From sequence record CP099787.1: a stretch of 64,000 bases of DNA; one strand, 5' to 3'. The DNA is from a plasmid. The translations under genes were made by a program, and so were the position numbers. This document shows, one piece after another, positions 6,475 to 61,765 of the stretch. The notes beneath the pieces were generated by a model. That model saw only the letters and a list, made by a program, of their open reading frames with translations, was not told the DNA's origin and ran no database searches. Position 1 is the stretch's first letter. Each line of letters begins with the position of its first letter.

Positions 6475-6496
6475 AGCCGTTGCGGATCCGCAACGG
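6475..6496. repeat. 22-bp perfect palindrome gccgttgcggatccgcaacggc (family core TTGCGGATCCGCAA)
   Basis: Read directly from the sequence; it is self-complementary. Confidence 0.85.
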
Positions 6497-6510
6497 CTAA
6501 AATATATGTC

Positions 6511-7077
6511 TTAAGCGTAACTAGTGAATTTTTGACGCTCATAAACTTTTGTTCCAGTTTCATCTATGACCGTAAATTTTAATAATCTAGCAATTTCACG
6601 ATTTCCAATCTGAACATATTCAGACTCTATTTTCTTTCTAAATGCTGGCCCTATAAATTCATTCGGTTTTGGAGTAACCCATCCTCTCATGTCTTCTTCA
6701 AAACGATATTTTTCAATCTCCCGAAGTGTTACAGTCTTTGCAGTAGATGAAATTACTTGATAAAAACTTACGTTTGTTTGTTCTGATCCCCAGCTAGAAA
6801 CAAGAATTGAACCTGGAATAAGTTTTTCTTTGAATGCGTTAGTTTTCTCTTTTTCTATAAGCTCTTTATTAAATATTTCTTTTACCAGATTCAGCCCATC
6901 AGACCAACAATTAAAATATTCCCATTTTAGCTTTTTTGAGTTTTTTTCAAAAATTCGTGCCGATAAATGAGAGGGTGATAAGTAAATTGTTTTGCCTGTA
7001 AGTTTGGACTTGAAAATTAGTGAGTCTGAATAAACTAGATGGCCTAGATTGTTAGTTATAAGAGTTGCTTTTTTCAT
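6511..7077 (-). CDS. hypothetical protein (about 188 aa)
   Basis: The conserved leader precedes it, and the true start is probably the ATG at 7077 (MKKATL). Confidence 0.55.
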   Translation of the reverse strand: MKKATLITNNLGHLVYSDSLIFKSKLTGKTIYLSPSHLSARIFEKNSKKLKWEYFNCWSDGLNLVKEIFNKELIEKEKTNAFKEKLIPGSILVSSWGSEQTNVSFYQVISSTAKTVTLREIEKYRFEEDMRGWVTPKPNEFIGPAFRKKIESEYVQIGNREIARLLKFTVIDETGTKVYERQKFTSYA

Positions 7078-7083
7078 AATATT

Positions 7084-7128
7084 CACCTTAAGCATTTCTG
7101 CTCATTTGAAACCAGCCTATCCGATTTC
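7084..7128 (-). promoter_or_regulatory. conserved structured 5' leader (HP1 + HP2-SD)
   Basis: gaaatcggataggctggtttc ... gagcagaaatgcttaaggtg, with a G-U wobble. Confidence 0.55.
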
Positions 7129-7199
7129 TCCTTTTAATTATAACATATTCTCGACCACTTACAAATTTATTAACGCAATATAAACAAACACTTAAGCAT

Positions 7200-7245
7200 A
7201 AATATAACCTAAAGGTTATGCTTGCAAATATAACCTAAAGGTTAT
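7200..7245 (+). promoter_or_regulatory. tandem 20-bp direct repeats, each containing the palindrome taacctaaaggtta (putative higBA operator/promoter)
   Basis: aaatataacctaaaggttat occurs twice, at 7200-7219 and 7226-7245, about 35 bp upstream of the toxin start. Confidence 0.5.
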
Positions 7246-7277
7246 AAAATAAAGTATCAACTTTATGATGATTTGTA

Positions 7278-7637
7278 ATGGCTTGGGATGTAGAAACAAC
7301 AGAACTTTTTGATTCTTGGTTGGCAGAACAAGATGAAAATGCTCAAGATAAAATCTTAGCGTCTTTGCTTGTTTTGTCAGAACTGGGGCCAAATCTAGGC
7401 CGGCCTCATGTTGATACTATTAAAGAATCAAAATATCCGAACATGAAAGAGATACGTGTGCAAGTTAAAGGTCATCCGATCCGTGGTTTCTTTGCATTTG
7501 ATCCAGAACGTAAAGCCATTGTTTTGTGTGCTGGAGATAAGAAAGGGCTAAATGAAAAAGCCTTTTATAAAGAAATGATCAAGATTGCAGATGAACAATA
7601 TGAGCAATATTTACGTGATAATTACGGAGATAAATAA
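7278..7637 (+). CDS. higB: RelE/ParE-superfamily toxin (HigB-like 'addiction module killer')
   Basis: A 119-aa product placed upstream of an HTH antitoxin, with a 1-nt ATGA overlap onto the next gene. The sequence pattern is typical of this toxin family. Confidence 0.6.
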   Translation: MAWDVETTELFDSWLAEQDENAQDKILASLLVLSELGPNLGRPHVDTIKESKYPNMKEIRVQVKGHPIRGFFAFDPERKAIVLCAGDKKGLNEKAFYKEMIKIADEQYEQYLRDNYGDK

Positions 7638-7936
7638 TGGCTAAATTAAACGATATAATTTCAAAACGCTCACCTGAAAGCCAACAACGCATCAAGAAAA
7701 TGGCAAATCAAATGCTATTGGATATTAACCTCTCGAACTTACGGGAAGAGTTAAAAATATCTCAAGCTGAAATTGCAAAAAATCTAGGTGTAAGCCAAGC
7801 TGCTATTTCAAAACGTGAAAAATTAGGTAAAGATCTTAAGATTTCATCATTAAAAGAATATGTTGAAGCTATGGGTGGCAAAGTAAGGTTAGATGTTGAG
7901 TTACCTAACGGAAAGCATGTTGCGATATCTATTTAA
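7637..7936 (+). CDS. higA: HTH (XRE-type) antitoxin, HigA-like
   Basis: The helix-turn-helix motif is LKISQAEIAKNLGVSQAAISKREK. A 99-aa product translationally coupled to the toxin. Confidence 0.6.
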   Translation: MAKLNDIISKRSPESQQRIKKMANQMLLDINLSNLREELKISQAEIAKNLGVSQAAISKREKLGKDLKISSLKEYVEAMGGKVRLDVELPNGKHVAISI

Positions 7937-8038
7937 TATGATCCCCAATATGATTGAAAATCTTTAAAACATCAAAAATCGTTTTAACTATTCAATCATT
8001 AGTTACAAAGTAGTGAATTCTAATAAAGGAAAATATAA

Positions 8039-8302: not shown

Positions 8303-8307
8303 TTTTT

Positions 8308-8394: not shown

Positions 8395-8883
8395 TTATAA
8401 ATTATTTTTCATAACCGAGTAAGTATATAACTGCTCCCAAGCCTCTAGTTTTAAAAACATCAGTGCTTTTTCATATGTAGCACCCTTAATATACATCCCT
8501 CCATCCTTGATCAATCCCTCTGACAAATTTTTCTCTATTTCATTTTGAGGTTCTAAATGCTCTTTTTTTAGGAAATCAATATGTTCTTGAATCACTAGGT
8601 TAAAGTTAATGCCTATATGGTTTAATCTTTCAGTCTGACTTAACTGATCATCATTTAAATCATAAGTAGTTAAAAAAGCTATCTCCTTGCTTCTAGCTAC
8701 ATTATGTTTTGCTACCGCAATGTAAAGTGAATGGCCTGTGACAATATTTGTGATTTTAGAATAATATGATTCAGGAAAATCTTTAATCAATTTCTTAGCA
8801 TTTGGATCTGTTGGCAAATTTTTATAATTTAGTTCTACAAATAGATAATTGTTTTTAAAACTTCTGTTTAAATTCATTTTCAT
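8395..8883 (-). CDS. hypothetical protein (about 162 aa)
   Basis: The ORF-track N-terminus is the translated leader; the true start is probably MKMNLNRS at 8883. Confidence 0.55.
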   Translation of the reverse strand: MKMNLNRSFKNNYLFVELNYKNLPTDPNAKKLIKDFPESYYSKITNIVTGHSLYIAVAKHNVARSKEIAFLTTYDLNDDQLSQTERLNHIGINFNLVIQEHIDFLKKEHLEPQNEIEKNLSEGLIKDGGMYIKGATYEKALMFLKLEAWEQLYTYSVMKNNL

Positions 8884-8886
8884 ACT

Positions 8887-8932
8887 CCATAAGCTTTTCA
8901 GCTCATCTATAGAAACCAGCCTATCCGATTTC
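8887..8932 (-). promoter_or_regulatory. conserved structured 5' leader (HP1 + HP2-SD)
   Basis: gaaatcggataggctggtttc ... gagctgaaaagcttatggag. Confidence 0.55.
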
Positions 8933-9017
8933 ACCCCTTAATTATACTACATTTCATGTCTTTTTATTAAGAAAAAACATATATTTAGTGTATTTTTTCG
9001 TGTTATAAAAGACATTT

Positions 9018-9442
9018 GCAGAGCAACGTGTCCACGTTGCGAACTGATGAAATTTGCGAGCATCCCCCTCCTTGATTACCGTTTCAAACTTCGAGCGAGT
9101 CAGTCAAAATCTGTGATTTTGACTAGACGACCGAAGAAGTGAAACTTCTCCCATTGGACCTTATCCGGTAATAACAAAGCAATCCCGCAGGGTTGCGACA
9201 AATAGCCCTCTAAATCGCTCTAATTGCCCCTAGATTCAATTTTAAAGATAAACAGCATCCGATCATGCTGCGTTAGGGATGTTGCCCGTAAGGGGCGAAA
9301 TACAAGCGTAAAAAAAGAGGATTTGAATCGAGTATTAAAATCAGGTTCAGGCTTTGCATGAAACTAGATTTTAAACTCGATGGATCCTCTTTTTCGCTTG
9401 GAGTTCGAGCGAAGCCAACTAGCCCGGCCCGTAGGGAACGCC
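9018..9442. repeat. about 425-bp structured repeat, copy B (full length)
   Basis: Identical to copy A except for one base. The listed ORF 9273..9455 lies inside it and is rejected as coding. Confidence 0.8.
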
Positions 9443-14302: not shown

Positions 14303-15406
14303 TTAATCTGCACTGATTTTTAATTGTTGCGGATCCGCAACGACCAGGCTTTTGAGCTGATCATTTAATTGTTGTGCCTGTAATTGTGTTTCTTTTCGCT
14401 TCTGAGCTGAAGTTTTGTTGATTGCCATAACTTCTTCAAAAGCAGTTAATGTATCAAGCTGCACCTTCTGAAGTGTCTCAATATCTATAACTTGGCGGTT
14501 GCTTTGTTTTGCAATATGAATTGAAGTTTCTTTAAAATCTTTCGCGCTTTCTAGAAGTGTTTCATTTGTGAAATTATCAATTTCCTCACCTAATTGTGAG
14601 TATTTCTTTTGATCTAAAATATTCAAGGCCAACATTAATTGTCTTTGCCAGGCTGGAATAGTTAAGCCAGATATAGTTTGGAACTTTTCAATTAACGCAA
14701 TATTATTGTTCTGCAAAAAAGTAATCTGAGGCAACGTTTGTAAGGCACTTAATCTCAACAATTCTAGATCCGTAATACGCTTATCTAAACGCTCTAAGAT
14801 TTGTGAATATGCATTTGCTCTTTGCTTTGCTAGATCTGTACCTTCACTGTTAAGTGACTCAATCAAGCCAATAAGCTCATTTTTTTTATATCGACCAGCT
14901 ATGACAGCAAAACCTAGTTGAGTATAAACAGAAATTGTATGCTCAAATAATTTCGTCAAGCTATCATTATTTAATTGCAACCCTTTTTGAGCTTCTGCTA
15001 CTTGCAATAAATTATCATTTAATTGTGATTCTACTGTCTTAAATTTAGTAATAAGCCTGTCTTTTGAATTACCAATTTTTGCTAACAGCCCCCCTATCAA
15101 CGGTATATTTGATTTATCACTACCAATGGAAAAGTCTGTTCTTTTTAATTTTACAGTAATATCCGTCATTAATTCTCCCATAACTCCCAACTGATCATTA
15201 GTAACTAATGACAGCATTTGGTTAGAAAGATCAGCTAACGAATCACGGTTATTAGCCCCCAACTCAAGTACCTTTTGTGGGTTCTTAATTAGATCTAAGT
15301 TTTCAACTATTGCTAAAACTTCATCTTTTCTATCAATATCAAGATCAAGTTTTTCCATTTCATTTTCAATTGAAAATACTTGTGTTGTTAATTCATTATT
15401 TAGCAT
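14303..15406 (-). CDS. alpha-helical protein, possibly TelA-like (toxic-anion-resistance family); tentative
   Basis: A 367-aa Leu/Glu/Lys/Gln-rich helical protein of about the right size, preceded by an HP2-like leader. The assignment rests only on compositional and length resemblance. Confidence 0.35.
   Translation of the reverse strand: MLNNELTTQVFSIENEMEKLDLDIDRKDEVLAIVENLDLIKNPQKVLELGANNRDSLADLSNQMLSLVTNDQLGVMGELMTDITVKLKRTDFSIGSDKSNIPLIGGLLAKIGNSKDRLITKFKTVESQLNDNLLQVAEAQKGLQLNNDSLTKLFEHTISVYTQLGFAVIAGRYKKNELIGLIESLNSEGTDLAKQRANAYSQILERLDKRITDLELLRLSALQTLPQITFLQNNNIALIEKFQTISGLTIPAWQRQLMLALNILDQKKYSQLGEEIDNFTNETLLESAKDFKETSIHIAKQSNRQVIDIETLQKVQLDTLTAFEEVMAINKTSAQKRKETQLQAQQLNDQLKSLVVADPQQLKISAD
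14326..14341. repeat. 16-bp palindrome GTTGCGGATCCGCAAC
   Basis: Read directly from the sequence. Confidence 0.85.
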
Positions 15407-17365: not shown

Positions 17366-18622
17366 TTAAATAAGGTCTTGTTGATTTAAAATAACTTGCA
17401 TACGAGAGTCTTCAACATTAGAAGATGGAACAAATACATGTAATTGCGCCATAGAATCTAAAATAGTCGCCAACTCATTAACTAGTACTGGATATTGAAT
17501 TAAGCTTTTCCACGAAAACAAATTAGCTGTATTTTCATCATTAAAGCTTCTTAAAAAGCCACAAGCTACTGATACTAAGTCTTCATCTTCGCTTTCTGTT
17601 AAATCTAAAATACTGACGTAACTTTCCAAAATACCATTAAAATAAGCTGTCTCAAGCTCTGAAAATGCCTTTTCATTTGCTTGTTTTACAATCTCTTTTG
17701 TTTGCTTTTGAGTAGTAGTCGTAAAAGATTTTTCATCTTTCACTGCTTCAGTATTTTCAACCGATTCTTGAACTTTTGCAGGTTGCTGTAAAGTCTCTTT
17801 AGTTTCGGTAATGAGCTCTTGAGTATTGTCCACTTTACTATCTTCATCTTTTTCACCAGCCTTTGGCGAATTCTGAAGTTCTAAAGATGACTGTGTTACC
17901 TCTGAAGTGCTTGAGGTAATAATTTCACCCTTCAGCTCTTTAGACCATACACGGGCTAATTTTGATGAAATAGCACCTTCATGATCTGCTACTAACGCTT
18001 TTACTTCTTCTGGATACTCAGCTAATAAGTTTTTAATGATCGTGCCAGTTTCAGCATCATTTACCATTTTATTAGCCATAAGGCTTTTTAGATAATCATC
18101 TGATTCAAGCAATTGTAATCTTCGAGAAACCCATGTCTTTGACTTATTAATTTCATTAGCTAAATCGTCATAACTATACTTTGGATTCTCTGCCACGCCT
18201 TCTTCTAGCATCAATTTTAAATTCGTAGCAACTTCAAGCAAACTCATGTCTTTTCTAAATAAGTTTTCTGACATTTTTACTCGGCGTGAACCAAGTTTGT
18301 TATCAATCGTTGCTTCGATAGTATCCAAGTTCAAATGTTTATGAGCTAAATAACGATAATGGCCCATATTAATAATATATTCACCAGGATTATCAGAATC
18401 GGCTCTAACTGAAATAGGCTGAAGTAAACCATCTCTCAAAATAGTATTTGCCAGTTCTTTTACATAATCTTGATCATATTCAAGACGTACATTCTGAGGA
18501 TCCAACTTAACCCGATTAAGCGGCAATTTTAGAATTGTGCGGTCAGAGTTATTGTTAGCATTTAAGTTTGCTGAAGTTAATGAGCTATCAACAGCGTTTA
18601 AATCACCTAATAAAGAAGACAT
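17366..18622 (-). CDS. parB: ParB-family partition protein (large, 418 aa, KorB-like size)
   Basis: It carries an N-terminal ParB/Sulfiredoxin-like box ...LLQPISVRADSDNPGEYIINMGHYRYLAHKHL.... It lies immediately downstream of parA and is translationally coupled to it. Confidence 0.8.
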   Translation of the reverse strand: MSSLLGDLNAVDSSLTSANLNANNNSDRTILKLPLNRVKLDPQNVRLEYDQDYVKELANTILRDGLLQPISVRADSDNPGEYIINMGHYRYLAHKHLNLDTIEATIDNKLGSRRVKMSENLFRKDMSLLEVATNLKLMLEEGVAENPKYSYDDLANEINKSKTWVSRRLQLLESDDYLKSLMANKMVNDAETGTIIKNLLAEYPEEVKALVADHEGAISSKLARVWSKELKGEIITSSTSEVTQSSLELQNSPKAGEKDEDSKVDNTQELITETKETLQQPAKVQESVENTEAVKDEKSFTTTTQKQTKEIVKQANEKAFSELETAYFNGILESYVSILDLTESEDEDLVSVACGFLRSFNDENTANLFSWKSLIQYPVLVNELATILDSMAQLHVFVPSSNVEDSRMQVILNQQDLI

Positions 18623-18625: not shown

Positions 18626-19399
18626 TTAAACCCCCATTTTCTCTAAAACTAATTGATTAATTTTTTTGATTTTTCGCCCTACATCTTTTGCTGACGTTTT
18701 ATCAATTTTCCATACTGGAACTTGTTGTTCACTTGCATCAGCAATTGCAGATCGATTAGGTATGAAAGCAGTCTTATCAAGCATTAAATGACTCAGTTGT
18801 TTCTGCAATTCATTTAAAGTTGTTTTTTGAGTAACAGAGTTAGCACTAACCATATTTGGAAGCAGCCCTAGAAACTGAATTTTTGGGTTTACTTCTTTAA
18901 TTTCTTGTGTGGTATCAATAATACCTCTTAGCCCTAGAATTGAATATTTATCCAATAAAAAAGGAGATAGAGCAAATTCAGAAACTAACAAAGGTAATCG
19001 CTGAAACGGGCCGTCTGTAGGAGGTGTATCAAAAATACAGATATCAAAAAATTCGTTAGCCTTAGCAATATTTGATTTGAAATTACGTTGGTATTCTTCA
19101 ACTTTATCTAGCTTAAACTCTTGTTCTGTAGGATCAAAAAGTGATTTTAAACTCTTATTACCTTTAAAAAGAACAAAATATTTATCTAAAGTTTCAAAGT
19201 TTTGGATATCCGTAAATAGACTATGGGTATCTTTAATCTCAACCGCAACTTTACTAAGTGAGAAACCACTATTACCTTGTTTATCCATGTCTACAAATAG
19301 AACACGCATACCGCGCTCATAACAGTAATGTGCCAAATGAACAGCAACAGAGGTTTTGCCAATCCCACCCTTTTCGTTAGTGATTACGATTTTTTTCAT
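18626..19399 (-). CDS. parA: ParA-family partition ATPase
   Basis: The deviant Walker A motif is KGGIGKTSVAVHLAHY. A 257-aa product preceded by the conserved leader. Confidence 0.85.
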   Translation of the reverse strand: MKKIVITNEKGGIGKTSVAVHLAHYCYERGMRVLFVDMDKQGNSGFSLSKVAVEIKDTHSLFTDIQNFETLDKYFVLFKGNKSLKSLFDPTEQEFKLDKVEEYQRNFKSNIAKANEFFDICIFDTPPTDGPFQRLPLLVSEFALSPFLLDKYSILGLRGIIDTTQEIKEVNPKIQFLGLLPNMVSANSVTQKTTLNELQKQLSHLMLDKTAFIPNRSAIADASEQQVPVWKIDKTSAKDVGRKIKKINQLVLEKMGV

Positions 19400-19452: not shown

Positions 19453-19530
19453 CTGAATAAATTATACTACTAAAACATACTTTTTTGCAAGAAAAAGATT
19501 AAATTTTATAGCGCCAATTTGTCTTAAATA

Positions 19531-19554
19531 GGTTGTTGCGGATCCGCAACAACC
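19531..19554. repeat. 24-bp perfect palindrome ggttgttgcggatccgcaacaacc, about 135 bp upstream of parA
   Basis: Read directly from the sequence. Confidence 0.85.
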
Positions 19555-19591
19555 TAAGCTTGTGTAAGTTACATCTATGCATATAAAAAAA

Positions 19592-20369
19592 TCAATCATT
19601 AATTAAAATGAAATTAGGCACATAATCTTCAGCTTTATGTACAATTTCCTTTAATTTTTGACTATGCAATTTTATGTCCCACCCTTTTACGTAATACATT
19701 AAGCTACACCAGCATTCACGATACTTTAACTTGAGGGTATCACCAACAAAAATACGGCAAGGCACTGCCCACAAACTTAGTTGTATATAACACATTAAAG
19801 CAACGTTTCTATCAATGTCTGCTGCCTCAATATACAAGTGATCTTGCACTTGTATCTTAGATTCCAAACAGAGTTTTACAGTTGAAAGTAAAGTTGAGCC
19901 AGCTCCACAAGCTGGATCGGAAATCGAAATCACCCCCTCTTCCTCAAGTTGGTTTTTTAAGGTCGGTCATTACAACTTGAGCACATAAATTTGATACCTC
20001 ACTTGGTGTAAAATATTGGCCGATATGATCATTCCCAATTTCTAATTCCATGTAAATGCTACCTAACACATCATATGGCTCACCCTTTGCTTCGCATAAA
20101 TCCACCAACAGATAAAACAATTTTTTTATTTTTAAACGTCCACTAACGTCGTAACGATTGATACGTTGAAGATATTCATTTTCAATATTGTGGTTAAACA
20201 AATTTTGATATCTATGACCAATTGAGTTTCTTAATGCTGCTGCTGAACAAAAAACAAAGTCATGAAATATTTCATAAATGTTTTTAGATTGGTCGATACT
20301 TTTTAAGGTATGTATAAACTCACTTTTCAAAACACTATAAGTTTTACCAATGTTAACTTTTGAATTCAC
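19592..20369 (-). pseudogene. N6-adenine DNA methyltransferase-like gene, split into two ORFs and lacking a recognisable catalytic NPPF/Y motif
   Basis: The ORF 19944..20369 contains GQYFTP (HsdM/N6-MTase motif X). The ORF 19592..19933 contains DPACGAGSTLL (AdoMet motif I). The two frames are separated by a stop/frameshift near 19933-19944, and an HP2-SD leader lies upstream. Confidence 0.55.
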
Positions 20370-20397: not shown

Positions 20398-20895
20398 TCA
20401 ATTAATAGTTTTCAATGTATTGAATTGTATAAAACCATTTAAACCGGCTTTACGAAAAGTTTCTAAGACTTTGAAATACATTAATTGGAAATTAAGAGAC
20501 TCATCTGCTGTTTTAGTGAATTCTCCCAAGTGGTCAGGTCTGAATAATATATCTGCGTTATTATTAAACCAGGTCAAACATTCAAAAATGAAGTCACCAT
20601 AGAACTCATATGTTTCTTGAATAGCGGTTAAGAAAGGACAAGGAATACCAATCAATTCTTCAAGAACTTTTAATGTTGAAATAAACTTATTAAATGACTC
20701 TTTTGTACTTAATGTATAAACATTAAAGTCCTTACAATCATACATAGTAGTAGATAAGGCAACTAAGCCAGTATTGTATTCAAAAGATGGCTTCATAATA
20801 TCAATATGGCCAACAGCACATGCACAATGTGATGGAGTCTTTAAACGACCAATTTTTAAATCAGTTATGATTAATACATTAAAATAATTATTCAT
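20398..20895 (-). CDS. hypothetical protein (165 aa)
   Basis: The conserved leader precedes it. Confidence 0.55.
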   Translation of the reverse strand: MNNYFNVLIITDLKIGRLKTPSHCACAVGHIDIMKPSFEYNTGLVALSTTMYDCKDFNVYTLSTKESFNKFISTLKVLEELIGIPCPFLTAIQETYEFYGDFIFECLTWFNNNADILFRPDHLGEFTKTADESLNFQLMYFKVLETFRKAGLNGFIQFNTLKTIN

Positions 20896-20900
20896 TTTTT

Positions 20901-20948
20901 CACCATAAGCTTTTCAGCTCAAAATACGAAATCAGCCTATCCGATTTC
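20901..20948 (-). promoter_or_regulatory. conserved structured 5' leader (HP1 + HP2-SD)
   Basis: gaaatcggataggctgatttc ... gagctgaaaagcttatggtg. Confidence 0.55.
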
Positions 20949-21057
20949 TAACCCCAAAATTGTAATACAATGATGTATTTTAATCAAGATCTTTAAACGT
21001 TAATATTGTTAAAAAACATTAATTTAATGAAATATATTTTCGAATTAAACATTACTA

Positions 21058-21237
21058 ACAGAGCAACGTGTCCACGTTGCGAACTGAAGGAATTTGCGAG
21101 CATCTCCCTACTTGATTACCGTTTCAAACTTCGAGCGAGTCAGTCAAAATCTGTGATTTTGACTAGACGACCGAAGAAGTGAAACTTCTCCCATTGGAGC
21201 TTATCCGGGAGTAACAAAGCAATCCCGCAGGGTTGCG
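21058..21237. repeat. structured repeat, truncated copy C (about 180 bp, about 93% identical to the 5' part of copy A)
   Basis: It runs from acagagcaacgtgtccacgttgcg to gcagggttgcg. Confidence 0.75.
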
Positions 21238-23302: not shown

Positions 23303-23307
23303 TCAAT

Positions 23308-26470: not shown

Positions 26471-26488
26471 TGTTGCGGATCCGCAACA
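26471..26488. repeat. 18-bp perfect palindrome tgttgcggatccgcaaca, immediately upstream of hns
   Basis: Read directly from the sequence. Confidence 0.85.
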
Positions 26489-28889: not shown

Positions 28890-28909
28890 CTGTTGCGGAT
28901 CCGCAACAG
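28890..28909. terminator. 20-bp perfect palindrome ctgttgcggatccgcaacag followed by T8 on the minus strand: terminator for 28916..29296 built from the palindrome family
   Basis: Hairpin plus U-run in minus-strand sense (A8 at 28881-28888 on the plus strand). Confidence 0.6.
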
Positions 28910-31112: not shown

Positions 31113-32196
31113 TTATCTGTCTAGTTCTACGCCAACATCATGTTGTAAGCTTTGTTCTTGAGTAATATGAAAATCTTGTATTTCCTTTTCATTCATTAAT
31201 TGCGGTATATCCCCAGCATGATTAATAAATAACTCTCGTCCACGATAAAAGTTATTGTCTTTTTCGAGTTGATCCTTTAATTGATCTTTACTGTATTTTA
31301 TTCCAACCAAGTTATTGATTTTGAGTGTAAAATCCCTTTCAGACTCATCCGTCACGATACCATGTACTACATCTCTAAATGAACCAGGATCTTTAATAAT
31401 CTTTGGTGGGTCTAAATTTATTTCTAAGTTCTTTTCTGATTTCCCGTTTATATTTTTATTTTGGTTTTCACGTGGATTAATTGTTAGATGAGCATTTTCA
31501 ATTTCTTTTAATTGTTGTTGCGTCAGCAAATTATAATCAGCCTCCGTTTTAGATAAAGTTTTATTCGTTTCTTGATTATAGATATTTAAACCAGCTTTTT
31601 TTTGGTTCCATACCCCTTCATCATTACGCATGTTTGAGTAAATTTCTTTACCAACACGATCATAAACTTTAAAACTATCCACAACTTTTGAATTTTCTAA
31701 TTCTTCTATTGCTCTTAAAGTTTCAGGATGTGTATTTTTATCTAAAGAGTTTTCATTAGGGGGGAATGAAGATACTGCTCTGATTTCAATCGTATAATTT
31801 TTACTCTTAAGCGATTCAGTAATATCATTTAAAACATTTTCATTTTTAAATTCATGATTTAAAAGCAAATTATATTTTTCATTACTAATAGTAGAAATCA
31901 ATTGATGAATTGAATGGTCTTTATCTTGTTGCGGATCCGCAACTTTAAAAAATTGATTGGTCAATTAAAATTGAACCACCTTTTTTATTTAATTCATCTT
32001 GTGCTTGTGCAACGATTACGTCTTTACCTGAATCATGAGTACCCACAGTTAATATAGCTGTTGGAGTTTCTTGACTAACAGCTAAAGCTTTAGAAAAACT
32101 AAAATACTTATCTACAAATTGAGTAAATTGTTGATTAATGCTTTCTTCCGAATTCAAACTAGAATTTAGAGAATTTTCAAAATTATTTGTTACCAT
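31113..32196 (-). CDS. zeta-toxin-family (UNAG-kinase fold) protein with an atypical Walker A; the reading frame is broken at a T6 run near 31950
   Basis: Across the ORFs 31945..32196 and 31113..31964, the sequence AVSQETPTAILTVGTHDSGKDVIVAQAQ...GGSILIDQSIF|KVADPQQ aligns with the zeta-toxin N-terminus [28 protein letters not shown]...[18 protein letters not shown]. Removing one T restores the frame. Confidence 0.55.
31928..31943. repeat. 16-bp palindrome GTTGCGGATCCGCAAC inside the zeta-like gene (it encodes VADPQ)
   Basis: Read directly from the sequence. Confidence 0.85.
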
Positions 32197-39387: not shown

Positions 39388-39401
39388 TTGCGGATCCGCA
39401 A
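39388..39401. repeat. 14-bp palindrome TTGCGGATCCGCAA upstream of 39431..40423
   Basis: Read directly from the sequence. Confidence 0.8.
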
Positions 39402-45525: not shown

Positions 45526-45855
45526 TTAAGATACTTGAATTGGTTTATCGCAATTCTCATCAGAGGTTTTAGTACCACTTAATTCTGGTTTTTTAAGTTT
45601 TCTGCTCCTTTCGTTTAATGAACTAGAATGTAAATGTTGCGGATCCGCAATCTTAGTTTTACTAGATGTTAATTCTTTATGTTCATTACAAAAACGGCCA
45701 GATTCAACTTTGATTAATCTATTTTTCTGAAGTGAATGAGCTGTTTCTCTTTCACTATTAATCTTCAAAAAAACATCTTGCATTGAGTTTGAGCCAGCGA
45801 ACATAGGGCCAGAACAAATCAAAGATAAGGAAATTACTATTAATTTTGCTTTCAT
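45526..45855 (-). CDS. small exported protein/lipoprotein (109 aa)
   Basis: Signal peptide with LICSG; HP2-SD leader upstream. Confidence 0.5.
   Translation of the reverse strand: MKAKLIVISLSLICSGPMFAGSNSMQDVFLKINSERETAHSLQKNRLIKVESGRFCNEHKELTSSKTKIADPQHLHSSSLNERSRKLKKPELSGTKTSDENCDKPIQVS
45637..45650. repeat. 14-bp palindrome TTGCGGATCCGCAA (inside ORF 45526..45855)
   Basis: Read directly from the sequence. Confidence 0.8.
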
Positions 45856-49473: not shown

Positions 49474-50517
49474 TTAATACACATAGAACGGTGAAATAGG
49501 GCCCAAACAGCAATTTTTCTTTCTGAATAATTCATAGGAGAAATGTTCGCCAGTTACCGGCCATGATTTCCCGGCACCCCATACACTTGTCGTTCTGCCG
49601 AATGGCTGGCAGCATTTACCATTAATTTTTTTAGTTTGTGCCACTGGATAGAGCATCTGATATTTATATGCTGTTTTATCCATAATTGGTTGCGGATAAA
49701 CGCCACACAATCCAGCTTCTCCATTGGTTCCCCAAGTTAGGAACTGACGATGCATTTTTGCTGCTAATCGTTGTGCAATTAGTGATGAAGCTTGAATATG
49801 ACTAACATGTGCGCCAACGTTCCCATTTAATGGATAAATTGAACCATTACATCCAGCACACCAGAACAGACCATTTGAACCAAAACCTGCTGATGCTAAT
49901 ACGCAATCCCCTGCACATGCAGCTTGTGTAAGTGGGTTTGTGAATAAGGCTGCTTCTGGAGATAAAATTGCAGACAACTCATCATCATTCCACATCGGAT
50001 CCAACTCAGTCATATATCCGATATCAAAGTATCCAGTTTCAGTACATGGATGCTCATAGATCACTTCTAACCACATCATGATTGGATCTGTATACCAGTG
50101 CGCTTGATAAAATGAGTGCCTATTGTTGTCATCATGCAAACGTACTTCACCTTCCGGTGCTTCTACACCTACGTCCAATTCAGTTCCTAATGAAACCATA
50201 CAATAAGGAGTACGAGTTACATCTACTCGTCTTACTGGCTCCCAAAAACCTGTTTGAATTCCTAGATAGATTCTTGGGATCGCACAACTACAGAACAATT
50301 GCGATGGATTACTATTATCTTCTTGTCCACCTTTCCACAATGGCATTCCTCCCATGCTGATAGGAAAAATGCAAGACCAACAGATATCGCTAATTGGATT
50401 AGCAAATTCGCCTGGGCAACGTAAGCTTTTAGATCCATTATTATTTGATCCAGAGTCAGCGGCGAAGCTTAAATTAGTGAAAATTAAAAGGAATAAAATA
50501 GTAAAAAATTTCTTCAT
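49474..50517 (-). CDS. traU: TraU
   Basis: A 347-aa Cys-rich periplasmic protein with motifs such as NPISDICWSCIFP, in the canonical position between traW and trbC. Confidence 0.75.
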   Translation of the reverse strand: MKKFFTILFLLIFTNLSFAADSGSNNNGSKSLRCPGEFANPISDICWSCIFPISMGGMPLWKGGQEDNSNPSQLFCSCAIPRIYLGIQTGFWEPVRRVDVTRTPYCMVSLGTELDVGVEAPEGEVRLHDDNNRHSFYQAHWYTDPIMMWLEVIYEHPCTETGYFDIGYMTELDPMWNDDELSAILSPEAALFTNPLTQAACAGDCVLASAGFGSNGLFWCAGCNGSIYPLNGNVGAHVSHIQASSLIAQRLAAKMHRQFLTWGTNGEAGLCGVYPQPIMDKTAYKYQMLYPVAQTKKINGKCCQPFGRTTSVWGAGKSWPVTGEHFSYELFRKKNCCLGPISPFYVY

Positions 50518-52082: not shown

Positions 52083-54805
52083 ACTTCTTCAGCCTCTTTT
52101 TTACGCATTAAAGCGTATGTTGCTTCTGTCATACTCATGCCTTTATTCGTGCATTCTTCAATGAAGTTGTAGTCGTCTTTGTTTGTTGATGCCATAGCTA
52201 AAGAAAACGGATCCGCAACATGTCTTACGATGTGCTGACCGTTTGGTGAAGTAACCATAATTTCTGAATACCAACCGTGGATACTTTCAATTGACTTAAT
52301 TTGTTTAATGACAGCTTCAGAAAAGTTCGCTTTTTTCTCTTGAAGTAACTTTTCAAAGCTTTGTTCATCTTGGCGTAAGAAGAATTTCCAGTCTGAAGAA
52401 TTATATGCAGCTCTAGCAGCATCATTCGCAAATGCGTCATCAATACCTTGAGTACCCATGCCAAATGAACCAAAGTATTTACGTGCTCTACGATAACCTT
52501 CTTCAATAAAAGCTGCTGTTTCTTCTGTATCATCAAGTAGTTGCCATGCTTCATCTACAAACACGATTTTCCCTTGAGATCGCGATAAATACATATCTCG
52601 CATGATTCGGTTCATAACACCGAAAAGCACAACCGTTTTTAATTCAGGTGAGTCTTTTAGTTCTTCCAGTTCGAGATATATCATCTCGTTATTCATATCG
52701 ATGTTGGCTTTACCATTAAAGTAACTTCCATACATCCCGTTTGTTTTGAAATTTTCTAACTGAGTACCAAGAGCCCAACCTCGTGCATCAATATTTCCGT
52801 TTTGATCTCTAATTTCTTTCAAGAAGTCAGAGATTTGGTCTACGCCATTGTTATTGCGGAATTTTAACCATGTCTCTCTAATAGCTCTTGAAAGGAGAGC
52901 TTTATCGTAATCGTCTAATGGTTTGGATGGTGAAGCCATTTTTGCATACATAGGCAAGAGCATTTTCATCTCTTGGGCAAATGTATTTAAGGTTCCTTCT
53001 TTTTCCGAAAGTTCCTCATCTTCAATTACCTCTAGCCATGTGAAAGGATTCATACAAATCTTTTCGCGCTTTGCGAAATCAATTGCTTGTCCTTTACCGA
53101 GCGCTACGAAGTTTTTAAATGAGCGTCCTACGTCAATAATATATATTTTGAAGCCCAAGCTTTTGTAAGCTGCCAAAATTTCAAGAGAGAAAACAGATTT
53201 ACCAGCGCCTGACGTACCACAAATATAAAAATTATAGTTCCCCTGTTTATTTGAAAATAAATCAAAAAAACAAGGTGTTCCTCTGCGGCCAAATACCATA
53301 ATTACCGGTTTACCGAAACCTTGCCATTCTGACAAAATTGGCATCATATCTACGGCATTAATAGTTGTTTTAGTCGTAATCAGCTTTAATTTCTTCAAAT
53401 CATCTCTTGCCTTTTTTGTCAAAATCATAGGCATTGATGAATAAAGAAGTGGCAGTTGTAAGCAAGATAACGGCATTACGCTAAAGCCGTTTGACTTCCA
53501 TAAATTGTCAACGTTTGCAGAATAACTATCTAGTTGTGATCTTGGAGCGAATATCCCGATTGTATGATAGAGCTCGCACATCCCTCCACCTTTATGTAGG
53601 TGATATGTGATCGCATTCCAATCTCTAGCAATTTCAGCATACTCAGGCTGCCATTTTGCCATTTTACTTTCAGCATTCTGTGTTGAACGAGCTTGCTTTA
53701 TTCTTGCTTTGGTTTCAGAAGATGTTTTATCTAAGATATGAATACCCATCGAAATTATGTAAGGGCATGGATACTGAAGGGAATTTTCAAAAAAATCGCC
53801 AATTACATTTCCCATTTCATAAAGATGTTTGAATTTTGGATACCTCATAACTCCAAAACCACGAAATGCAATTCGATTGTCTTCTTCTAGATCTTCATCG
53901 TCATCTTCTTCAATCCATTCAGAATCATAGACTCTTACTGATCTATTAGTTCCCTTAGTTTTATCAATTATAGGTTGACCAAATACTATTTCAGACACAC
54001 CAACTGTTGCTGAATGACCACGTGGTGTTAACTGACTTTTTATTGATTCTAGACGATTATAATCTTCACTGTAGTATGAGCGAGAAACTTGGAATTCATG
54101 TTCTGGTGGAACGGTTCTAAATAAACTCTCAGGGTCAAGCATTGGCTTAATTATTTTAAGCAGTAACATTGGTGTTAAAACAATATTAGGTAATTTAGCT
54201 TGTTGTAGTTGAGCACTTGTCTGATGCAACAACTCTTCCATTTGCTTAATTAGTTGTGGGTCTTTATAACTACCCGAACGTGTAACTGATAGAATAATTT
54301 TTGGTTTTTTAATAACGTAATATGAGTCTCTTCCGAACTGTGGCCGTCCTTTACGAGACTGGATATGTTTGATTCGATTCTTTGCAAATTCTATTGCGAA
54401 ATCAGACACTTTACCATTCTGATATTCCGCAACACGTAAATCCAAGTACTCTTGAAGATCATCTTCAAAAATTGTATTACCGAAGTTTAATATCTGAATA
54501 CCTGTTTCCGCAGGGAAACTTGAAATAATAGATACTATGCGAGAAACGAAGTCCTCATTTGATCCTGTCTGCGGTATGATTTCTAGAGCAAAGCTTACGG
54601 AAGGGCCATCATTATAATAAAGACTTCTTTTCACATTAAACATGTTGTATTTAAATATCTGATACATGCCGTAGCTTTCAAGAATCTTATTCGTTAAATC
54701 TACAGTTGAGAATTTTTTACCTGTCGGATCATCACCTAATACGTGGACCTTAAACCAGTTTGCGAGCATGGCTCTAAAATTGATTAGTTTGTTATTTCCA
54801 GTCAT
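52079..54805 (-). CDS. traC: TraC (VirB4-family ATPase)
   Basis: A 908-aa product with the Walker A motif GTSGAGKS and a Walker B region. Confidence 0.9.
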   Translation of the reverse strand: MTGNNKLINFRAMLANWFKVHVLGDDPTGKKFSTVDLTNKILESYGMYQIFKYNMFNVKRSLYYNDGPSVSFALEIIPQTGSNEDFVSRIVSIISSFPAETGIQILNFGNTIFEDDLQEYLDLRVAEYQNGKVSDFAIEFAKNRIKHIQSRKGRPQFGRDSYYVIKKPKIILSVTRSGSYKDPQLIKQMEELLHQTSAQLQQAKLPNIVLTPMLLLKIIKPMLDPESLFRTVPPEHEFQVSRSYYSEDYNRLESIKSQLTPRGHSATVGVSEIVFGQPIIDKTKGTNRSVRVYDSEWIEEDDDEDLEEDNRIAFRGFGVMRYPKFKHLYEMGNVIGDFFENSLQYPCPYIISMGIHILDKTSSETKARIKQARSTQNAESKMAKWQPEYAEIARDWNAITYHLHKGGGMCELYHTIGIFAPRSQLDSYSANVDNLWKSNGFSVMPLSCLQLPLLYSSMPMILTKKARDDLKKLKLITTKTTINAVDMMPILSEWQGFGKPVIMVFGRRGTPCFFDLFSNKQGNYNFYICGTSGAGKSVFSLEILAAYKSLGFKIYIIDVGRSFKNFVALGKGQAIDFAKREKICMNPFTWLEVIEDEELSEKEGTLNTFAQEMKMLLPMYAKMASPSKPLDDYDKALLSRAIRETWLKFRNNNGVDQISDFLKEIRDQNGNIDARGWALGTQLENFKTNGMYGSYFNGKANIDMNNEMIYLELEELKDSPELKTVVLFGVMNRIMRDMYLSRSQGKIVFVDEAWQLLDDTEETAAFIEEGYRRARKYFGSFGMGTQGIDDAFANDAARAAYNSSDWKFFLRQDEQSFEKLLQEKKANFSEAVIKQIKSIESIHGWYSEIMVTSPNGQHIVRHVADPFSLAMASTNKDDYNFIEECTNKGMSMTEATYALMRKKEAEEV

Positions 54806-54814: not shown

Positions 54815-55459
54815 TCACTGTCTAGTAAACTTAGAGATATCGACATTCAAGTCTTTTATTTCAGTATTTATTCCATTCAAAATTTCTTTACTATTTGGCT
54901 GGCTATTAACTGAAGCATTTACTGGTATAGGACCATCTGAACCTGTTTTAGTAGATTGCGGATCCGCAACTGTAATGGCTGGACTTGAATAGTTTGAAAT
55001 TGGGGCTCCAATTGGTGCGTATGCATCTTGTAGACGTCGAGAATTGTGTTCAATCATCCACTTCCAATTGTCGATTACTAGATAGAAATATTGTTGATCG
55101 AATAAAGTTCTATCCGAAGATTCCCACGGAGCTACCCAAATTCTGAGAGTTTTCGGTTGGCGTAGTAATGGTTCATCTGCGTATGGAGCTACTGGCATTG
55201 CATTATCTTTAGTCGCACGTGTACGCTGCATATATGTATTTGCAATTACTTCTTTACTATTGCCATGTTTAACCTGCTGTGACGGCAAATTGTTTGCATT
55301 CAAATTCGCCATTACACCTGACATTGAGTCACACAAAATTCCATCTGGCGCTTTGCATGAAAATGAGCTTTGACCATTTAAACCGTCGAACCCTCCGTTA
55401 AATGCTGCACATCCACTTAGATTGATTGCCAAGCAAAGTAAAATACCTTTTCTTTTCAT
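54815..55459 (-). CDS. traV: TraV lipoprotein
   Basis: Lipobox LSGCAAF. Its position before traC follows F-like order. Confidence 0.6.
   Translation of the reverse strand: MKRKGILLCLAINLSGCAAFNGGFDGLNGQSSFSCKAPDGILCDSMSGVMANLNANNLPSQQVKHGNSKEVIANTYMQRTRATKDNAMPVAPYADEPLLRQPKTLRIWVAPWESSDRTLFDQQYFYLVIDNWKWMIEHNSRRLQDAYAPIGAPISNYSSPAITVADPQSTKTGSDGPIPVNASVNSQPNSKEILNGINTEIKDLNVDISKFTRQ
54956..54969. repeat. 14-bp palindrome TTGCGGATCCGCAA inside traV
   Basis: Read directly from the sequence. Confidence 0.8.
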
Positions 55460-59819: not shown

Positions 59820-60056
59820 TTATTTGGCTACTGCCAAATGCTTTTCACTGCGCTCTTGTTGAACGCAACTTTTATTTTCTGGATCACATAGAACAAATTT
59901 TGATTCTCTGCCTTCACCCTTTTGAAGAACATTCACATATCGGGTGATAGGGTTAGGTTCATTCATACTCTGCTGTTTTGTTTCATTTTTTTGTTCTTTT
60001 GCTACTGCTAAGGTTGCGGATCCGCAACATAGTAGAAGCAAAAAAAATCTATTCAT
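59820..60056 (-). CDS. small exported protein (78 aa)
   Basis: Signal peptide MNRFFLLLLCCGSATLAVA. It contains the 16-bp palindrome at 60013-60028. Confidence 0.45.
   Translation of the reverse strand: MNRFFLLLLCCGSATLAVAKEQKNETKQQSMNEPNPITRYVNVLQKGEGRESKFVLCDPENKSCVQQERSEKHLAVAK
60013..60028. repeat. 16-bp palindrome GTTGCGGATCCGCAAC
   Basis: Read directly from the sequence. Confidence 0.85.
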
Positions 60057-60072
60057 TTCATACTCCGTGTGG

Positions 60073-60699
60073 TTAGAATCGAATTATTTGGAAATTTGAA
60101 GTTTTCTTAATTGTTTGATTCACTGAAGAATAATTTGGAATATCTTCGTTATAATTAACTGACTGAGCTTTTATACTTTGAGGTTGTAATGGGGTATAAA
60201 CTGCTGGTAAGCCCGCTTTTCTTTTATAGCCTTCAAAGTATCTTCGAACATCGGCAGAATATTGATTCATTGCCGTATATGCTTTAGAAGCAGGTCCTCC
60301 GTAGTAACACCCTACTGCTCTCCAGACTTCACCAAATTTTTTTAAACAATCAGCAAGAACCCATGAAGCAATTTTTTGAGAAGTACAAGGATCGAATAAA
60401 TCATTACGAGTAATTCCTTGTTTTCTTAAAGCTGGTAAATGAATGGTATTTATCTGCATTAGTCCTAATGCTCTATTGCCATCTTTAAGTAAAGAACCAA
60501 CTGCACCAACATGGCCTCTACTCTCTTTCCATCCAATTGCTTTTAATAAAATAGGATCCGTACCATACATACTTGCGGCTTCATCCCAACAAACAGCATA
60601 TGTTGTTGATGTAACACAAGCTCCAAATACGATTGCTGAAAGTTTTATAATTGAGTTATGTATGTTGTAAGTTTTAGCTCTTTGCATAGCTTCAATCAT
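60073..60699 (-). CDS. lytic transglycosylase (orf169/P19-like), first gene of the tra operon
   Basis: SLT motifs are present (ESRGHVGAVGSL...GLMQI). Its position before traA matches F orf169. Confidence 0.75.
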   Translation of the reverse strand: MIEAMQRAKTYNIHNSIIKLSAIVFGACVTSTTYAVCWDEAASMYGTDPILLKAIGWKESRGHVGAVGSLLKDGNRALGLMQINTIHLPALRKQGITRNDLFDPCTSQKIASWVLADCLKKFGEVWRAVGCYYGGPASKAYTAMNQYSADVRRYFEGYKRKAGLPAVYTPLQPQSIKAQSVNYNEDIPNYSSVNQTIKKTSNFQIIRF

Positions 60700-60722
60700 G
60701 TACGAATTAATATGTTATTATC

Positions 60723-60754
60723 ATACTAAAAAATTACATCAAAGTGCTGCAATT
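60723..60754 (-). promoter_or_regulatory. conserved promoter/operator motif, copy 3 (tra operon promoter)
   Basis: atactaaaaaattacatcaaagtgctgcaatt lies about 25 bp upstream of the transglycosylase start. Confidence 0.5.
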
Positions 60755-60929
60755 TTTTAAAAATAAAACTGCTTGTTTTTATCTATAAATTTCAGTATGT
60801 TATAGATTTCATTAATATATTTTTACATTATTTGTTACAATAGGCATACACTTGCTGAGGTTAAATAAGCGATATTTAACACTCCCCAAGCCATAATGTT
60901 GTTTTTTTGTTTATACAAGCTTAAGAAAA

Positions 60930-61265
60930 ATGGCAAAAAAAGGCATAAATTCTTTAAATCTCATTAATAGTTATGAGTCAAAAATTATGAATGTTAAGTT
61001 ATCAACTGTTGAAGCAGCTCTCAATACTCCGTTAAAACCATTAGAATTAAATTCCGAAGTAAAATGTCCTAAATGTAAAAGTCGGAATCTCATATGCAGC
61101 GTTAGATACCAAACAGCAGATGTAATTCATTTTGAAAATGGATGTTTTCAATTAAAGGAATCAGAAGCATCAAAGATTTTCAAAAAAATTGATCTGGAAT
61201 GTAAAGACTGTGGCAATAAATTTGAAAATGAAAAAGTTAAGACACCCAATGAAGTGTTGTTCTAA
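60930..61265 (+). CDS. zinc-ribbon protein (CxxC...CxxC) (111 aa)
   Basis: The cysteine pairs are CPKCKS...CKDCGNKF. Confidence 0.5.
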   Translation: MAKKGINSLNLINSYESKIMNVKLSTVEAALNTPLKPLELNSEVKCPKCKSRNLICSVRYQTADVIHFENGCFQLKESEASKIFKKIDLECKDCGNKFENEKVKTPNEVLF

Positions 61266-61290
61266 ACAATAAGAATAGAAGGAGTGCAAG

Positions 61291-61722
61291 ATGCAAAGTA
61301 TTGTCAAACATATATTTAGACACTATCTGGTAGCTTTATTAAGTTTAGGAATATTTATTCTGAGTTACTTTGTTGGGATGGTATTTGGTAAATTGCTATT
61401 TAAAAACATGAATGCCGTAGAGATCGGATCTATTTTTACAGCCCTTGCCGTTAATTTTTACCTCTCCCTCCTACTGTGTACCTTCACTTTTGTTGGGCAA
61501 TTTTTTTTCAATTCATTAAAAAAAATTGCAGACACCCCTTTCCAAAATCTCTTAATTCTTTTAACTGGTAGTTTTTGGATGGTTGCTACACGAACTCCTG
61601 AAGTGATTACGAACAATATTCCCTTATATAATTTTAATATTAGCCTAATAACTTTATTTGCATTTATGTTGTTCATTAGCAATTCAAAATTTATAAAAGC
61701 TTTTATTTCTAAACAAGAATGA
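61291..61722 (+). CDS. membrane protein (143 aa)
   Basis: ORF with an SD aaggag and four TM helices. Confidence 0.55.
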   Translation: MQSIVKHIFRHYLVALLSLGIFILSYFVGMVFGKLLFKNMNAVEIGSIFTALAVNFYLSLLLCTFTFVGQFFFNSLKKIADTPFQNLLILLTGSFWMVATRTPEVITNNIPLYNFNISLITLFAFMLFISNSKFIKAFISKQE

Positions 61723-61735
61723 AAAAGTCTCAAAC

Positions 61736-61765
61736 AATTGTTGTTGCGGATCCGCAACAACAATT
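61736..61765. repeat. 30-bp perfect palindrome aattgttgttgcggatccgcaacaacaatt between convergent genes
   Basis: Read directly from the sequence; it is the longest member of the palindrome family. Confidence 0.85.

Follow-up and report, generated by a model that had tools for sequence, protein, structure and literature searches.

The 64,000-nt stretch of plasmid sequence record CP099787.1 considered here (the window) carries a parA-parB partition locus and, scattered among its other genes, many copies of one perfect palindrome, which are probably the sites of the ParB that this locus encodes. Over positions 5378-64000, the window is 99.6% identical to pXH731 (NZ_CP021322.1), a 64.6-kb MOBF/MPF_F conjugative plasmid of Acinetobacter baumannii, and its sequence identifies it as the backbone of an Acinetobacter conjugative plasmid of the RepAci6 type (pACICU2/p1AB5075-like). 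Nearly all of its genes lie on the minus strand, including parA, parB, hns, a zeta-toxin-family gene, rep, a Y-family polymerase gene and an F-like tra region. Two complete plasmids were used for comparison, namely pXH731 and pBJ83 (NZ_CP018422.1); the latter shares the backbone at 66-72% nucleotide identity and holds 18 copies of the palindromic 12-mer TGCGGATCCGCA.

The genes parA and parB lie on the same strand, 3 bp apart, which is the gene arrangement of type I ParABS systems, and parB is followed in every lineage by an open reading frame (ORF) of 409 aa (Table 1). Orthologues of this ORF in pBJ83 and on the short contigs L005, L006 and L008 have 409-411 aa and no detectable domain, and a 57-aa ORF usually comes after them. 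Taken together, parA, parB and orf409 appear to form a conserved operon. A palindrome is found upstream of parA in all four sequences that cover this region, and in pBJ83, L005 and L006/L007 another one lies directly after parB, before orf409. At the parA site of the window, the 16-bp core ends 44 bp upstream of the predicted -35 element, and the 22-bp sequence GTTGTTGCGGATCCGCAACAAC forms a sharp footprint, kept in four lineages, within a poorly conserved spacer.

The repeat family and its extent

An initial annotation of the window had claimed that a specific 14-mer occurs in 11 copies, which could not be due to chance. The recount agrees: TTGCGGATCCGCAA has 11 exact copies in the window (starts in Table 1) and none in any of 100 dinucleotide-preserving shuffles, so that 0 are expected against 11 observed, and the repeat family is not a product of chance. 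A search that allowed up to two mismatches added a single site, at 4091-4104, with one mismatch. This corresponds to a degenerate copy that had been placed at 4091-4103 and is genuine; it contains a perfect 12-bp palindrome. By contrast, a second degenerate copy, placed at about 52207-52219, turned out to be a half-site only, GGATCCGCAAC, with an intact right arm and no left arm; it is one of the two orphan half-sites in the window. Perfect palindromy spans from 14 to 30 bp depending on the copy. Most of the extents first assigned hold, except that the palindromes at 6474-6499 and 19529-19556 measure 26 and 28 bp instead of 22 and 24, and the gene contexts were also given correctly: about 130 bp 5′ of parA, 5′ of hns, a hairpin stem with a T-run, and the interior of the zeta-family gene and of traV. 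The window contains 40 palindromes with arms of at least 6, in 12 of which TGCGGATCCGCA is the central 12-mer; besides one low-complexity T/A run, the TTGCGGATCCGCAA/TGCGGATCCGCA family is the only palindrome family in the window with multiple copies.

Sites for the consensus were gathered by searching for the central 10-mer GCGGATCCGC, and thus the invariance of these ten positions is built into the search. The 41 sites collected (82 half-sites) come from lineages whose backbones are just 66-76% identical. Outside the 10-mer, all half-sites have T at ±6, 93% have T at ±7 and 88% have G at ±8, and T is weakly preferred at ±9 and ±10. Because conservation reaches ±8 and symmetry farther out is barely above expectation, the unit is, on this alignment, the 16-bp palindrome GTTGCGGATCCGCAAC.

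The repeat belongs, to judge from the databases searched, to the backbone of a single Acinetobacter plasmid family. When the long palindrome was compared by BLAST with 72,556 PLSDB plasmids, it hit 232 records (231 from Acinetobacter and 1 from Klebsiella), and parAB DNA is found in 230 (229 from Acinetobacter and 1 other). Palindrome and parAB DNA agree in their counts and in the breakdown by organism; the accession lists were not intersected, and a count of the exact 16-mer takes in sites below the detection of the BLAST query. A scan of species-representative genomes for the 16-mer gave, among the matches listed (at least 120, with no Acinetobacter genomes among them), single chance-like hits in high-GC sequences and one contig, CAZNMO010000021.1, that is probably mis-binned (see below). 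The same scan of IMG/VR gave 17 matches, all of them single hits. In the literature searched, outside of which lie subscription-only papers, nothing was found on the 14-mer, on KorB-like regulation or on parS in RepAci6 plasmids, and the matches to 'KorB' were to the author name Korber. One further record, NZ_CP032742.1 (28.7 kb, 'non-mobilizable'), was considered as an informative deletion derivative and rejected, as it is a fragmentary, error-rich assembly of the tra region.

Table 1. Palindromic sites and partition-locus features in the window; 14-mer starts refer to exact copies of TTGCGGATCCGCAA
Feature	Position	Strand	14-mer start	Context
Degenerate copy	4092..4103			12-bp perfect palindrome TGCGGATCCGCA; directly upstream of the start of a small minus-strand ORF
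26-bp perfect palindrome	6474..6499		6480	Gap of 48 bp separating two co-directional genes; GGAGG and ATG directly after it on the minus strand
16-bp site	14326..14341		14327	In the 3′ end of a TelA-like gene; V-A-D-P-Q; next gene starts 36 bp on
ORF of 409 aa	16001..17230	-		After parB
parB	17366..18622	-		418 aa; ParB/Srx N-terminal domain, KorB-type DNA-binding domain, variable linker, predicted helical C-terminal domain
parA	18626..19399	-		257-aa Walker-type partition ATPase
parA promoter (predicted)	19461..19490	-		Conserved sigma-70-type TTGCAA-N18-TATAAT, then conserved 5′ leader
28-bp palindrome	19529..19556		19536	Upstream of parA; 22-bp core GTTGTTGCGGATCCGCAACAAC the same in four lineages
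18-bp site	26471..26488		26473	Within the nuc-hns spacer (65 bp), which places it about 30 bp before the annotated start of hns; orthologue in pBJ83
20-bp site	28890..28909		28893	Followed by a minus-strand T-run (terminator-like); orthologue in pBJ83
16-bp site	31928..31943		31929	Within the zeta-toxin-family gene; V-A-D-P-Q; orthologues in pBJ83 and L064
14-bp site	39388..39401		39388	Spacer separating the divergent genes of the Y-family polymerase and of a 330-aa protein; orthologues in pBJ83 and L064
14-bp site	45637..45650		45637	Within a small ORF between traF and traH; I-A-D-P-Q
Orphan half-site GTTGCGGAT	49689..49697	+
Orphan half-site GGATCCGCAAC	52211..52219	-
14-bp site	54956..54969		54956	Within traV; V-A-D-P-Q in a variable linker; orthologue in pBJ83
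16-bp site	60013..60028		60014	Upstream of tra (pilin/traL) genes; kept in three lineages
30-bp perfect palindrome	61736..61765		61744	Between convergent genes; overlaps the stop codon of a serine recombinase gene

Conservation and arrangement of the sites

The same core is present in lineages other than those of the two complete plasmids. It occurs on L005, L006 and L008, which encode ParB proteins that are 61-66% identical, and in a third lineage represented by the 34.8-kb contig CAZNMO010000021.1 (L063/L064). This contig is 73-76% identical to pBJ83 and has at least five palindromes at orthologous positions; its placement in an 'uncultured Clostridiaceae' metagenome-assembled genome is probably a binning error, and it belongs to this Acinetobacter plasmid family. 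At least 8 of the 12 sites of pXH731 have positional orthologues in pBJ83 or in the third lineage. Some of these positions are upstream of parA, hns and tra genes, at the terminator-like copy at 28890 and in the divergent spacer of the Y-family polymerase gene, while others are within genes, namely zeta, traV and mobF (the mobF copy is outside the window).

The intragenic copies are translated in few ways. Those in traV, zeta, mobF, telA and a small tra ORF read (V/I/N)-A-D-P-Q, and others read C-G-S-A-T in signal peptides, as does the site at 60013..60028 in the signal peptide of a 78-aa ORF. The residues that flank these islands differ between lineages, and the linkers are otherwise not conserved. 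Since the intragenic sites are kept as ADPQ and CGSA islands in variable protein segments, it is the DNA on which selection acts. The motif has thus been fitted into protein segments that tolerate it and then held fixed, and the repeat family is, from this pattern, under strong selection at the DNA level.

This conservation bears on the possibility that the copies work mainly as hairpins in RNA or single-stranded DNA, for instance as terminators, as stabilisers or processing sites of mRNA, or as priming or promoter hairpins on the transferred strand, which we consider quite improbable. Several copies do have the position or shape expected of such hairpins. The copy at 28890, together with its T-run, scores as an intrinsic terminator, and the one at 61736 lies between convergent genes; several intergenic copies occupy the place of hairpin 1 of a common 5′ leader (described in the last section), before a GNRA hairpin and a ribosome-binding site, or directly precede a ribosome-binding site, and some arms reach 26-30 bp with lineage-specific symmetric changes. 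Nevertheless, the flanks past the 10-mer are invariant or nearly so, and, apart from the copy at 4091-4104, no mismatched or compensated variant of the 14-mer is present in the window at up to two mismatches, whereas the hairpins of these plasmids that are truly RNA structures differ among themselves by compensatory and wobble substitutions. The 41 sites are only slightly more symmetric past ±8 than expected, half of the 12 copies are inside ORFs, without a T-run and in frames that the proteins tolerate, and the parA copy is upstream of the promoter. Thus, three features, namely the invariance of the sequence, the presence of copies inside genes and the location of one copy upstream of a promoter, speak against RNA structure as the primary function; an added role of the intergenic palindromes at the RNA level is possible.

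The orthology of the sites is equally relevant to whether the palindromes could be the footprint or the target of recombination or of repeat spread, as an element of the REP or MITE kind (repetitive extragenic palindromes and miniature inverted-repeat transposable elements), a recombinase site or a microhomology hotspot. Three pBJ83 copies are exactly at the junctions of repeated segments of about 190 bp that are also found separately, and the longest copy of the window abuts the serine recombinase gene. Other copies, though, have no common flanks, and the repeated unit is only the 16-bp palindrome. Moreover, at least 8 of the 12 pXH731 positions being orthologous at 66-72% identity points to ancient fixed sites and not to recent spread; 12-18 active sites would scramble the plasmid, yet synteny is preserved, and the positions are stable across hundreds of near-identical plasmids. 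Such an origin is therefore very improbable. To our knowledge, GTTGCGGATCCGCAAC has no resemblance to the Acinetobacter pdif consensus.

A link to restriction-modification or methylation, in plasmids that carry orphan methylases, is scarcely credible. It is suggested by the core GGATCC, a BamHI site with GATC within it, and by the N6-methylase gene directly upstream of the parA copy. However, conservation over 16 bp far exceeds that of a type II site, and GGATCC is not avoided in the window, where there are 14 further copies compared with about 5 estimated from base composition. In addition, the accessible part of a report on the nanopore methylome of pACICU2/pAb-G7-2 names other methylated motifs and not GGATCC (PMC13227989).

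The sites are also distributed in a particular manner. On pXH731, six of the 12 are intergenic, compared with an intergenic fraction of 11.8% (P=0.0013), and six are intragenic. A site is met about every 5 kb around the plasmid, and the gaps are more even than random on both circles, with a coefficient of variation (CV) of 0.44 on pXH731 (P=0.003; largest gap, 9.3 kb) and 0.46 on pBJ83 (P=0.0005; largest gap, 7.3 kb); since many of the sites are orthologous, the two results do not count as independent. As a control, the same counting was applied to one IncP-1 plasmid, pMNCI063 (LC623898.1), where the 11 sites of the KorB operator OB, TTTAGCSGCTAAA, intragenic ones included, are clustered (CV 1.13). 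A 96-kb member of the family, NZ_CP102824.1, has zero copies in its AbaR4-like, insertion sequence-rich or TnaphA6 inserts. This plasmid was also considered as an additional lineage and rejected, since it belongs to the lineage of the window and carries accessory inserts in addition.

A KorB-type ParB as the candidate partner of the palindromes

The ParB of the window is related to KorB. PF08535, the KorB DNA-binding domain, is detected in it with E=4.8e-10 (39.7 bits, against a cut-off of 22.3), as is the Pfam domain ParB_N, and both its best sequence match in the PDB and its top Foldseek matches are RK2 KorB (8qa8 and 8qa9). An alignment of eight members of the family consists of a conserved N-terminal peptide, an N-terminal domain, a helix-turn-helix region, a hypervariable linker and a conserved C-terminal domain. 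In the N-terminal domain, YIINxGHYRYLAH is invariant, and two further invariant residues, R90 and N120, align with KorB R117, which is needed for cytidine triphosphate (CTP) binding, and N146. Four of the five lineages that are 44-66% identical have their highest conservation in the DNA-binding domain (73-87%, compared with 57-75% in the other folded domains and 14-22% in the linker), which fits an operator that has stayed unchanged. The segments NDAETG and GA[I/L]SSKL.R, which align with the T211 and R240 region of KorB, are invariant in the family and differ from KorB, where T211 and R240 reportedly are base-contacting residues, as Khare et al. described in 2004. The length of the protein, 418 aa, had been thought to matter as well; it is not evidence, as the extra residues are a disordered linker and a larger C-terminal domain predicted to be all-helical. 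Relatives were found in a protein search (8 clusters) and in a metagenome scan with the ParB alignment (2 loci). The relative with 44% identity (ERZ27239145) is on a 1.6-kb contig that has no site.

Taken with the conservation described above, this relationship makes it probable that the palindromes are the cognate sites of the plasmid's KorB-type ParB, that is, a set of the parS/OB type. The best reading is a new KorB/OB-like system that would serve as centromere and autoregulator and possibly as global silencer, for which we infer binding, repression, centromere function and CTP dependence. ParB dimers would use their conserved KorB-type DNA-binding domain to recognise the 16-bp GTTGCGGATCCGCAAC. 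Upstream of parA, the site would autoregulate the parA-parB-orf409 operon and, along with other copies, would nucleate the partition complex on which ParA acts. At promoters, such as those of the divergent region of the Y-family polymerase gene, the gene at 28388-28780, hns and the tra leader, the sites would let ParB repress transcription. Finally, should ParB resemble KorB in being a CTP-dependent clamp, the evenly spaced copies, also those retained within long tra genes, would be loading sites from which it covers the whole backbone. By analogy with KorB, a role of ParB as a global operator-binding regulator is plausible.

Two sites illustrate the relation to predicted promoters. The one at 28890..28909 precedes a conserved promoter by about 100 bp; the -10 element of this promoter (GTATAAT) ends at 28802, and its extended -10 matches that of parA. 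The one at 39388..39401 overlaps the predicted transcription start of a weak plus-strand promoter at 39355-39384.

The comparison with KorB had already been drawn in the initial annotation, and it holds in part. It is favoured by PF08535, by RK2 KorB being the best match, by the 22-bp footprint upstream of the parA promoter and by the confinement of the palindrome to parAB plasmids; it is weakened by the minority of sites that are beside a recognisable promoter and by a KorA-like partner not having been identified. For IncP-1 KorB (RK2/RP4), a CTPase clamp that together with IncC acts in repression and partition, the parts follow the same order as in the ParB studied here: N-terminal peptide, N-terminal domain, DNA-binding domain, flexible linker and C-terminal domain (PMC11790492). 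KorB operators are 16 bp long and precede promoters either by 4-10 bp or by anything from 45 bp to more than 1 kb (PMC11790492); GTTGCGGATCCGCAAC has this same length, which is also that of parS, and the distances between sites and predicted promoters here fall in both the proximal and the distal range. Both systems have about a dozen dispersed 16-bp palindromes, in promoters, between genes and inside genes, and one site upstream of their own operon. Nevertheless, the operators are unrelated (GTTGCGGATCCGCAAC here and TTTAGCSGCTAAA in KorB), and the two proteins have about 25-30% sequence identity. KorB has the motif GARRYR and an SH3-like C-terminal domain, KorB-C, in contrast to GHYRYL and a predicted helical C-terminal domain of about 115 aa in the ParB here; in the latter, KorB-C (PF06613) had no Pfam match, and the Foldseek search returned no match to it. 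IncP-1 plasmids also have KorA, TrbA and the operator OA, with no equivalent found here among the ORFs scanned. Lastly, spacing is even here and clustered on the one IncP-1 plasmid tested, and the host range here is restricted to Acinetobacter.

Other ParB systems are similar in fewer respects. The IncC (A/C2) ParB is also a plasmid ParB with a KorB domain and, according to the accessible part of the report on it, its palindromic core TTTCACATGTGAAA needs conserved flanking bases, the footprint exceeds 14 bp, and three parS sites were tested by electrophoretic mobility shift assay (PMC10954446). The flanking G/C at ±8 is similarly conserved here. That part of the report describes no plasmid-wide set of sites for IncC, as opposed to the 12-18 replicon-wide copies here, and the motifs are unrelated. 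In chromosomes, the parS consensus is TGTTNCACGTGAAACA, which is unrelated to GTTGCGGATCCGCAAC, and full sites cluster near oriC, whereas here they are evenly placed over 65-70 kb. The likeness to chromosomal ParB-parS consists of a 16-bp palindrome, extra copies and half-sites far from parAB, and a ParB that acts beyond segregation; for instance, Pseudomonas aeruginosa ParB binds many parS-related half-sites (PMC5961200, PMC10419367).

Several observations weigh against ParB being the cognate protein or against a close parallel with KorB. The palindrome co-occurs with the whole backbone, which travels together, and not with ParB specifically; likewise, the motif is identical in every relative found (ParB identity of 60-100%), so that the sites offer no variation to compare with that of the protein. 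Only about 3-5 of the 12 sites are near a recognisable (predicted) promoter. Some copies have extended arms of 26-30 bp that are specific to the site, and several are just upstream of ribosome-binding sites or have a T-run, where a hairpin role at the RNA level is possible. As for the protein, its phosphate-binding motif GHYRYL keeps one of the three arginines of GERRxR in ParB and GARRYR in KorB, and its C-terminal domain (residues 320-413) is all-helical in an AlphaFold2 model built from the alignment of eight sequences, a model of low confidence (pLDDT, the predicted local distance difference test score, of 58) that is used for domain-level statements only. CTP binding and sliding by this ParB are uncertain, because only that one arginine is kept. 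In addition, no KorA or TrbA homologue was detected by Pfam or NCBIfam in the part of the ORFs that was scanned, promoter-proximal small ORFs included. A search for a second operator that would accompany the palindrome also found none; the inverted repeat ACGACA-N5-TGTCGT beside 39388 does not form a family.

Consequently, the sites might belong to another DNA-binding protein, of the backbone or of the host, in which case ParB would use a different centromere. Co-occurrence cannot separate ParB from about 60 other backbone genes, many backbone ORFs have no Pfam or NCBIfam match, and a conserved 409-aa ORF without assigned function always follows parB. Even so, another binder is unlikely: no other parS-like repeat was seen near parAB, the palindrome family is the sole multi-copy one of the window besides the T/A run, the palindrome flanks parAB in every lineage, and ParB is the only backbone protein found with a type of domain known to use dispersed 16-bp palindromes.

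Within the ParB reading, a further and more doubtful step is that the evenly spaced sites are a loading array from which a divergent ParB clamp covers the entire backbone, so that the whole plasmid would be one ParB domain. Such an array would produce plasmid-wide silencing and form the partition complex, rather than control operators promoter by promoter. The spacing, with a largest gap of 7-9 kb, would then report the sliding range of the clamp, and the ADPQ and CGSA copies would be held in the long tra and mobF genes to keep this spacing. The clamp would be one with the phosphate-binding motif GHYRYL, a helical C-terminal domain and no KorA.

The best explanation of the ParB-palindrome pair is a system of the KorB kind with traits of its own, namely a different operator, nucleotide motif and C-terminal domain, no identified KorA and unusually even spacing. 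Plasmids of the RepAci6 family (pACICU2, pAb-G7-2, pA85-3 and p1AB5075) are reported to be the main conjugative carriers of the OXA-23 carbapenemase and of aphA6 in epidemic A. baumannii clones (PMC4356202, PMC6751817, PMC8346695). Their maintenance and regulatory circuitry is essentially unannotated, with most backbone genes labelled 'hypothetical', and the 16-bp site with its KorB-type ParB would give a concrete handle on partition, on copy control of backbone expression and possibly on the control of transfer. The site could also serve as a target for plasmid curing or incompatibility tools. For the biology of ParB/CTP clamps, it would be a natural second KorB-like example that differs in its operator, has diverged in its nucleotide motif and lacks an obvious KorA, and its statistically regular spacing could inform how far such clamps act.

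Leaders, mosaic segments and other features

A conserved 5′ leader of about 55-65 nt is common to at least 10 operons and begins right after the TATAAT -10 element. Its 5′ ends on the minus strand of the window are at 1732, 2161, 3150, 5430, 6266, 7128, 8932, 19453, 20948 and 23356; it is also present in pBJ83 (L002 22468, 23453, 25929, 35888 and 37361), L006 (1459) and L008 (994 and 2476). The leader starts with hairpin 1, GAAAUCG-GAUAGGC-UGAUUUC, in which the loop and one G-U pair are invariant, and continues with a U-rich spacer, a hairpin with a GNRA tetraloop (AGCU-GAAA-AGCU), the ribosome-binding site and ATG. RNAalifold on 17 leader sequences gave 13 pairs, four of them with compensatory changes and none broken, and a scan of the window, leader included, against Rfam found no match. 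The leader is probably a plasmid-specific element of mRNA stability or translation, or the target of an RNA-binding regulator. This promoter-associated repeat had been a candidate for a second operator and was rejected, as it behaves as an RNA hairpin leader. Four dispersed copies of a larger intergenic module of about 350 bp, which are 81-97% identical, lie at 3091-3661, 8872-9248, 20884-21237 and 23291-23673. All four precede minus-strand genes of the maintenance or leading region, and each comprises the leader along with a promoter (…cttaataaaaagacatga…GTATAAT).

The end of the window that precedes the match to pXH731 (1-5377) has no counterpart in that plasmid, where mobF and its neighbours occupy the corresponding place, yet it still carries backbone-style leaders and the degenerate palindrome. 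Therefore, the plasmid is a longer variant than pXH731. The window itself does not contain the region of mobF and the coupling protein, which in pXH731 has a further palindrome inside mobF.

The repeated segments of pBJ83, A and B (about 190 bp each), are found at L002 26383-26764 and 38043-38424, L003 3742-3931 (53742-53931 of the record) and L002 23572-23760. Segments A and B are joined exactly at a TGCGGATCCGCA palindrome (twice), or occur singly on one side of a palindrome, or without a palindrome. In these arrangements the palindromes mark the junctions of mosaic segments, which hints that the sites can be recombination breakpoints.

Beside the palindrome at 39388, an inverted repeat, AACGACA-N5-TGTCGTT (39354-39372), overlaps the predicted -35 element. 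It is partly conserved in L064 and occurs once in the window; some other regulator may use it as its operator. On the plus strand, 37674-37958 encodes a stand-alone protein of 94 aa with a ParB/Srx N-terminal domain. Its phosphate motif, GENRFRA, is near-canonical, and it lacks a DNA-binding domain; the protein is possibly a modulator or partner of the full-length ParB. Finally, compared with pXH731, the window has two single-base insertions. One of them, at 31952, falls in an A-run adjoining the palindrome at 31928-31943 and interrupts the zeta-toxin-family gene, whose product has 360 aa in pXH731; the other, at about 19934-19943, splits the 258-aa N6-methylase gene upstream of parA; these could be real pseudogenes or homopolymer sequencing errors.

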